Sequence record: PQ666542 | Strand: one strand, 5' to 3' | DNA from: Shigella phage sb4 | DNA: 64,000 nt | Shown here: positions 45,020 through 46,832 of the stretch, piece by piece | Layout of the letters: every line of letters starts with the position of its first letter | Position numbering within the stretch: the first letter of the stretch is position 1 | Position numbers and translations under genes: made by a program | The notes under the pieces: generated by a model | What the model saw: only the letters and a program-made list of their open reading frames with translations | Told to the model about the DNA's origin: nothing | Database searches by the model: none

Positions 45020-46832
45020 TGGTGTTTAACCCTATGCATGATTTCTTTATTTTTGCCAAGATTAAATCCACGTTCGTTCGGATTTCCTAAATAACCGCTA
45101 GTTCTTCTTATTGTGTTCATCTTTTTAGGATCAGTTTCTCCACAAATAGAACAAACAAATCCGTTTTCAGTAGGAGTCATTACATGTGTACTTCCACATG
45201 TAAAACACTTATCTACTGGCATATTACCGCCAAAATAATCTAAATGTTGTGCAGCATAATCCCATACAGCCTCAAGACCTTTTAGGTTATTTTTCATATC
45301 AGGAAGTTAACAAAAGAAATGTGTCCACCTGTCGCAATGAAATGATACGGTGCTTCGCGAGAAATCATTTCAAACGGGGTGATATTTTCTTCTACTGAAA
45401 CATGGAAACTGTTAGTGTACCAGCCTTTATCAGTAACATCCTTTACACATCCATATTTTTTAGTATCAAGTTTACAGAAGCGATAACAAAGGTTTTCAGC
45501 AGGAGTAGAATACAAGCTAAAAGCAAAACCAGTTCTTTCAGACCACTGCTTAAGACGAGCATTCATTTTAGTTAAAATTTCCTGTCCAATATTATGTCCG
45601 ACAAGAATATTCAATTCGTGAATTCCATTGTATCCCAAAGACACTGAACTTCTACCTTTTTTAAATAACTCAATTATGTCGTCATCAGGTTTAAGACGAA
45701 CCCCGAATGCACCTTCTTGGTAAAGAATATGAGCTACAGTTGCTTTAACACCCTTTAAATAACTAATTCTACACATCAAGGCTTCAAAACACAAATCCAT
45801 TCGTTCATTAAATAGCTCAACAAATTTCTGTTCATTGAACTGTGTTCCAATATAATAATCTAACGCAATACGAGGAAGATTCAGTGTTACAACACCAAGA
45901 TTATTACGTCCATCAAGAATATCATGAACAGTTGAATCTTCCCATACACTCAAGAAACTACGACAGCCCATTGGAGAAACAGGAATAGATGAGCCGGTGA
46001 TAGCTTTATTGTTCTTAGCTGAAATAATATCAGGATACATTCTTTAGCTTGCACACTCTAGAGCAAGCTGCTTAATATCATAATTTGGATCGTATTTATA
46101 AAGATTAACACCTTCTTCAACGAACATAACAAGTTTAGGGAAAATAGGAGTTATCCCATCACGACCAAGACATTTGATACGATTTTTCAGAATTGCTTTC
46201 TGAATCATTCGTTCAGTCCAGTCAGTTCCCGTACCAAATGTAATTGTTACAAAAGGCGTTTGTCCATTTGAACTAAAGAGAGTATTTTGTTCATATTCAT
46301 AAGCTTGGAATGCATCGTATACGTCTTTTTCTGTTTTAGATTGGGCGTAATTCAACGCATCAGCGATTTGCCATTTTTCTGCGTCCTCAATATGTTTTGC
46401 ATAGGTGCGTTTAACATAAGGAGAAAGTACTTTATCTACATTCGCAAAAGTCGTTCCGCCATATTGATGAGAAGCAACCTGTGCAGTAATTTGTGCCATA
46501 ATTGCAGTAGCAACGCCGATTGATTTAGGAGTTTCAATCTGCGCATTACCGAGCTTAAATCCGTTCTCAAGCATTCCTTTTAAATCTACTAAACAGCAAT
46601 TAGTAAATGGAAGAGCAGGGGAATAATCAATATCATGGAAATGAATAATTCCGCTTTCATGCGCTTTCATAATAAAAGACGGGACCATATTTTTGGCAAT
46701 GTGTTTAGACACAATACCAGCCATAAGGTCCCGTTGAGTTGGAAAAACACGAGAATCTTTATTAGCATTCTCGTTTAAAAGGTCTTTATTAGTTTTATGA
46801 ATCAATCCTTCAATTTCTTTTTCAATTGTCAT
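45016..46832 (-). CDS. nrdD: anaerobic ribonucleotide reductase NrdD; in-frame TAA at 46044-46046 and frameshift near 45297-45312; no intron
   Basis: three track ORFs (262+248+93 aa) cover a 605-aa-equivalent span; C-terminal glycyl-radical-like RRTSGYLG. Confidence 0.85.

Follow-up and report, generated by a model that had tools for sequence, protein, structure and literature searches.

The broken nrdD gene of Shigella phage sb4 very probably reflects error-like changes throughout the sequence record

The DNA analysed here (the window) is a 64,000-nucleotide stretch of Shigella phage sb4, record PQ666542, and covers the first 64 kb of the genome record of a T4-like phage (Tequatrovirus). The nrdD gene, for the large subunit of the class III anaerobic ribonucleotide reductase, lies on the minus strand at 45016..46832. 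Endonuclease VII (gene 49, 46829–47302) is immediately upstream, and the gene for the radical-SAM activase, nrdG (44549..45019, minus strand), adjoins nrdD on its downstream side, with the nrdD stop and the nrdG start overlapping in an ATGA at 45016–45019. nrdG is intact – it encodes 156 aa with matches to the Pfam families Fer4_12 and Radical_SAM, and it has no private nonsynonymous changes. The window as a whole is collinear and near coordinate-identical with the genomes of the Shigella phages pSs-1 and sb2. The best match is sb2, with 97–98% identity.

The nrdD span is 1817 nt long instead of 1818, and no uninterrupted frame of about 605 codons runs through it: codon 263 is a TAA, and a −1 nt frameshift follows at codon 509. 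As a result nrdD is present as three consecutive minus-strand ORFs, not two. The first (46044..46832) has 262 aa, corresponding to codons 1–262 followed by the premature stop, and matches positions 1–233 of the Pfam NRDD profile (PF13597). This piece is 99% identical to T4 NrdD (PDB 1H78) over its 262 aa (E = 2e-172), differing from the T4 enzyme at 4 positions. The second ORF (45294..46040) has 248 aa, running from codon 265 to about codon 508 and then into a frameshifted tail, and matches profile positions 236–476. Its C-terminal end reads ...ATGGHISFVNFLI before the stop, the last residues being GGHISFVNFLI. The third (45016..45297) has 93 aa, residues 513–605 of the natural protein, and matches profile positions 480–562 as well as Gly_radical (PF01228). 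It begins with MKNNLKGLEAVW... and includes the sequence RRTSGYLG. The three pieces together tile the NRDD profile.

The ATG of the third piece overlaps the TGA of the second in an ATGA at 45294–45297, and this start is the natural Met513. The third piece contains both the Zn-ribbon cysteines (Cys543, Cys546, Cys561 and Cys564) and the glycyl-radical loop with Gly580. In a conceptual translation of the whole gene, catalytic Cys79, Cys290, Asn311, the Zn-ribbon cysteines and Gly580 are all present. We take the roles of these residues to be those known from the published structures of T4 NrdD. The radical motif RxCGY(L)G is not found in this translation: Gly580 is there, and the neighbouring Cys579 has become Ser.

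Alignment of nrdD with 11 relatives – sb2, pSs-1, sb1, T4 and seven IMG/VR contigs – located the lesions. A single G of the gene strand (C on the plus strand) is absent between 45309 and 45308, in codon 509, which is GAA in the relatives. The site (45308..45309, minus strand) is outside any homopolymer. The deletion turns GTT GAA CTT into GTTAACTT and moves the 93-aa glycyl-radical C-terminus to another frame. All 11 relatives keep the missing G. The premature TAA (46044..46046, minus strand) replaces AAA (Lys263) through a private A>T transversion at 46046; codon 263 is AAA in all 10 of the relatives that cover it. The third change of note, Cys579Ser (45097..45099, minus strand), is AGC for TGC through a private T>A at 45099, which converts RRTCGYLG to RRTSGYLG at a cysteine that sits beside the radical glycine and is kept in 11 of 11 relatives.

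Against this panel, nrdD in the window has 22 private substitutions. They fall 8, 10 and 4 times on codon positions 1, 2 and 3, and 19 of them are transversions. Twenty private amino-acid replacements result, Cys579Ser among them, in an otherwise almost invariant protein. Third positions account for a much larger share of the private nrdD changes of natural relatives: 27 of 29 in L008, 33 of 40 in L012, and 9 of 12 in T4. The N-terminal 540 nt of nrdD are almost clean. In codons 180–600 the density of private transversions is about twice the window mean. This places nrdD near the top of the local range of noise, where the DNA polymerase gene (gp43) and the region from 60 to 64 kb have a similar density.

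The first-pass annotation had placed a frameshift at 45297–45312, near the C-terminal domain, on the grounds that the ORF 45294..46040 ended in GGHISFVNFLI while RRTSGYLG lay in another frame, and that a span of 1817 nt fitted a 1-nt deletion. All of this stands: the missing G falls within that interval, the ORF check gives the same frames, and the intact base is found in every aligned relative. The gene that it described was in two pieces, with the frameshift between them; it overlooked the in-frame TAA and the 20 private amino-acid changes.

The same annotation correctly considered the gene contiguous, with no group I intron as in T4. The T4 nrdD gene has a 1033-nt insertion after approximately gene position 538 (about codon 180, corresponding to about 46293–46295 in the window). 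The window is uninterrupted at 46293..46296 (minus strand), the site homologous to that of the T4 nrdD intron. No counterpart of the 1033-nt T4 segment was found in the window, which is collinear here with intronless alleles and so does not have the T4-type intron. Likewise pSs-1, sb2 and the best 40 database matches are collinear at the intron site. The introns of T4 have long been known to occur variably among T-even phages (PMC2988022), and an intronless nrdD is the ordinary, common state among T4 relatives. mobC, which in T4 is a free-standing HNH endonuclease gene between nrdD and nrdG, is also absent from the window.

Compared with T4 nrdD (sunY), then, the window copy encodes an orthologous protein that shares the catalytic and Zn-site residues and Gly580, but T4 has both a group I intron with the GIY-YIG endonuclease I-TevII and mobC, and the window has neither. 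The intronless Tequatrovirus genes of pSs-1 (NC_025829) and sb2 (PQ666540) are closer. They have the same gene order (nrdG, nrdD, gene 49), a length near 1818 nt, 95–98% nucleotide identity to the window, and neither intron nor mobC. The window copy differs from them in lacking a single base and in having a single nonsense codon, together with 20 private missense changes.

The deletion was not found in any other phage, with more than 100 inspected. A 31-nt pattern across the site had no matches in IMG/VR in its deleted form and 7 in its intact form. When 200 nt around the site were used as the query, an even sample of the 676 matching phage records gave 59 full-length rows, each of which spanned 201 nt, and with a 2601-nt query all 40 of the best matches spanned 2602 nt, that is, they have the extra base. 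None of the three nrdD ORF products had an exact match in a collection of 15 billion proteins.

Disrupted genes are not confined to nrdD. Relative to the gene set of pSs-1, and in comparison with the Shigella phages pSs-1, sb2 and sb3, 33 of the window's 126 genes are disrupted: 15 of 49 between 1 and 24.4 kb and 18 of 77 between 24.4 and 64 kb. The frameshift or split that the earlier annotation implied was specific to nrdD is thus one case of a kind of lesion found in many genes, including essential ones. The gene for gp43 DNA polymerase has a TAA at 32043–32045, where GAA has become TAA at codon 178, leaving ORFs of 177 and 713 aa. Both clamp loader genes are broken, that for gp62 by two premature stops (33454–33456 and 33160–33162) and that for gp44 by one (33815–33817). 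The gene for gp47 has a premature stop at 38953–38955, and that for the topoisomerase subunit gp52 (188–1516) is disrupted at codon 143. Also disrupted are rIIA (5839–8016), at codons 6 and 256; dda (14888–16207), at codon 358; and modA. In endonuclease VII, next to nrdD, CAA has become TAA at codon 67 (47102–47104), leaving ORFs of 66 and 90 aa. Other frameshifted genes are srd, modB and an mrh-like gene, with private insertions at 16841 (+T), 18278 (+CC) and 20045 (+G), respectively. Genes 43, 44, 62, 47 and 52 are essential in T4. Because these are broken, no viable, propagating phage can have the sequence as it is written.

Several other differences were noted in the window. A private 6-nt in-frame insertion (TAAGTG on the plus strand) is found at 51962, inside the gene at 51656–52684. 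The superinfection immunity gene imm has TAA at codon 35 (29207–29209) in both the window and sb2, where pSs-1 has TCA. No other premature stop is common to the window and sb2 in the 24.4–64 kb comparison; it is an allele that both truly have, or else an error specific to the site. The segment 43569–43900 is highly divergent from sb2 and pSs-1: within 300 nt there are 24 private transversions, and a gene of 60 aa has 17 private nonsynonymous changes. Noise was considered as the cause of the divergence at about 43.6–43.9 kb and rejected – the best matches to this segment are ESh16, ESh34 and ESh36, at about 95% identity, and it is a natural mosaic block.

Over 39.6 kb, sb2 and pSs-1 served to polarise the private changes. 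The window has 613 private substitutions, pSs-1 has 599 and sb2 has 400, and those in the window are of a different character. At codon positions 1, 2 and 3 there are 137, 137 and 279 in the window, compared to 84, 56 and 412 in pSs-1 and 65, 33 and 258 in sb2. The ratio of transitions to transversions is 303:310 in the window, 500:99 in pSs-1 and 301:99 in sb2. Nonsynonymous changes outnumber synonymous ones in the window (284:224), the reverse of pSs-1 (114:393) and sb2 (86:242). The codon-position counts of the window can be decomposed into about 220 natural substitutions and about 350–370 that are blind to codon position, the latter affecting about 1% of sites. A<->T and C>A/G>T changes make up most of the excess, which is strand-symmetric. 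No sequence-context motif (homopolymer extension, or proximity to modified C) was found at the private substitutions; the context is flat except for a mild depletion of G. Private single-base insertions and deletions are far rarer than substitutions, with 2 in 40 kb.

If about 370 random substitutions were placed on the coding sequence of pSs-1 (36 kb), 28.5 premature stops would be expected, and 23 were observed. There is no purifying selection on the changes private to the window, even on nonsense changes in essential genes. These changes are blind to codon position, atypical in spectrum, and seen in no relative. A simple random model does not describe the noise perfectly, as TAG is lacking among the premature stops. 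The 33 that derive from substitutions comprise 29 TAA and 4 TGA, with no TAG. Given the substitution spectrum and codon usage of the window itself, about 19% should be TAG (P ~0.007 for the 23 polarised stops). Out of frame, 12 TAG trinucleotides were created, with 18.7 expected. The context of the errors was rejected as the full cause of the lack of TAG: it explains only part, and TAG does arise out of frame.

The phage was described in a study of four Shigella phages from lake water in Kolkata: ADG1 (PQ666539, sb1), AKR2 (PQ666540, sb2), CDR3 (PQ666541, sb3), and TMC4 (PQ666542, 164,971 bp), which is the phage analysed here (PMC11993411). The number of predicted proteins was 291 in TMC4, 285 in sb1, and 254–255 in AKR2 and CDR3 (PMC11993411). 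In the gene list of TMC4, nrdG (TMC4_087) is followed by three entries for 'anaerobic ribonucleoside reductase large subunit' (088–090) and two for endonuclease VII (091–092), and there are also two for DNA polymerase (059–060) and two for gp62 (062–063) (PMC11993411). The ORF fragmentation of the window is exactly that of the published list for all four of these genes: nrdD, endonuclease VII, DNA polymerase and gp62. The fragments were treated as separate proteins in that study, and their fragmentation was not mentioned (PMC11993411). The genomes were assembled with SKESA from Illumina NovaSeq reads, with no coverage figures given (PMC11993411).

A second genome of the study has a similar appearance. 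In sb1 (L003, 5025–6842), nrdD is cut at codon 481, where GAA has become TAA, and is annotated as nrdD_1 and nrdD_2, so that a relative in which the C-terminal domain is a separate protein, which the first-pass annotation had named as evidence against a frameshift, does formally exist. The lesion in sb1 is another one, and not a conserved split. The sb1 gene has 24 private changes, 16 of them transversions. Thus sb1 and the window, from the same study and pipeline, share an nrdD in pieces, an identical 93-aa C-terminal ORF and private changes that are rich in transversions. They differ in that sb1 has the codon-481 nonsense change and no frameshift, and its noise is dominated by C>A/G>T, compared to A<->T in the window. 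nrdG is unannotated in sb1. In sb2 (L001, 5384–8080) the annotation divides DNA polymerase between two CDSs, and the region compared has 7 broken genes out of 77.

The breakage of nrdD is therefore very probably an artefact of the record – about 1% error-like substitutions and a few small insertions or deletions in the deposited sequence – because some 33 genes, nrdD and DNA polymerase among them, are broken in a sequence with random-looking errors at about this rate. We infer a technical origin, in sequencing, assembly or consensus calling. The problem is shared by two of the study's four genomes, with different lesions in each, and this points to the pipeline as the source. In nrdD, such noise would have produced one 1-base deletion (codon 509), one nonsense change (TAA for Lys263) and some 20 missense changes, and in the phage itself nrdD is most likely intact, intronless and ordinary, as in its relatives. 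Some observations count against an artefact: the noise in nrdD codons 180–600 is about twice the mean, insertions and deletions are rare, T4 can do without nrdD in aerobic growth, TAG is lacking among the premature stops, and the data are of Illumina/SKESA origin. Assembly of Illumina reads does not normally give a consensus error of 1%. The deletion, which belongs to a rarer class of event here than the substitutions, could in principle be real.

Two other explanations accept some or all of the lesions as real. The nrdD gene could be a genuine pseudogene, decaying in a niche in which anaerobic synthesis of dNTPs is dispensable, with the noise of the record superimposed on it. T4 does not need nrdD for aerobic growth in the laboratory, the density of private changes in the gene is about double the window mean, and noise in the form of insertions and deletions is comparatively rare in the 24–64 kb region, all of which would be consistent with such decay. 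We nevertheless consider it unlikely. The changes in nrdD share their transversion-rich signature, blind to codon position, with those in essential genes, and gp43 and the 60–64 kb region are similarly noisy; the clean N-terminal 540 nt are not what gene-wide decay would leave; nrdG, immediately downstream, is intact and free of private nonsynonymous changes; and the deletion is absent from each of the more than 100 other phages inspected. A second explanation, that the sequence is faithful to DNA that is real but non-viable, such as that of a heavily mutagenised or defective population, would account for the lack of selection, as unselected real mutations would show it equally. This is very unlikely, as the consensus of a plaque-purified, propagating phage cannot fix some 600 independent, unselected mutations, lethal ones included, and different lesions in half of the study's genomes suggest a fault of the pipeline rather than of the DNA.

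Other explanations would keep the broken genes functional, and are less probable still. The ATGA at 45294–45297, with Met513 opening a 93-aa ORF that has a complete Zn-ribbon and Gly580 loop, is what might be expected of an NrdD that is split or recoded, either by termination and reinitiation at the ATGA or by a programmed −1 frameshift, to give a module of the GrcA/YfiD type. But the catalytic barrel is already cut short by the separate TAA at codon 263, the Cys beside the radical Gly is now Ser, and the arrangement is conserved in no relative, the split in sb1 having another cause. As for a programmed −1 frameshift, a TAA lies immediately upstream of CTT CCT GAT ATG in the target frame, which leaves a usable overlap of about 12 nt (AAC TTC CTG ATA). 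This overlap has no slippery heptamer of the form X XXY YYZ, and no two-frame conservation was found in IMG/VR, in the 59 sampled rows, or in the best 40 matches. The probability of functional splitting or recoding is accordingly minimal. Only slightly higher, and still very low, is that of a narrower version in which the deletion is real and residues 513–605 are made separately by reinitiation at the ATGA and act in trans with the barrel, as a 'spare part' of the GrcA type. Like the autonomous glycyl-radical proteins of that type, the third piece is a short ORF with a Gly_radical domain, but it is the detached end of nrdD, in one noisy record, with Cys579 changed, and is not conserved as a separate gene. 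Readthrough of the stops, through reassignment or a suppressor tRNA, might be suggested by their bias toward TAA and away from TAG. It is just as improbable as a functional split. TAA replaces codons of at least six amino acids (AAA, GAA, CAA, TCA, TTA and TAT, for K, E, Q, S, L and Y) rather than of one consistent amino acid, and it is not avoided as a terminator – TAA or TGA normally terminates 72 of 77 genes, and TAA alone, the commonest natural terminator, 40 of 77. No tRNA genes were found in the window, and the 10 tRNAs listed for the phage are standard ones (PMC11993411). Readthrough would also leave the frameshifts and the excess of missense changes unexplained.

The reading of the broken nrdD as an artefact of the record has consequences for the use of this genome. 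The inflated gene count of the phage (291, compared to about 255) and the 'fragments' of nrdD, gp43 and gp49 would stem from noise in the sequence, and the record is unfit for inferring pseudogenes, split genes, recoding or protein variants. If the deletion in nrdD should prove to be true, it would represent the ordinary loss of a dispensable gene.
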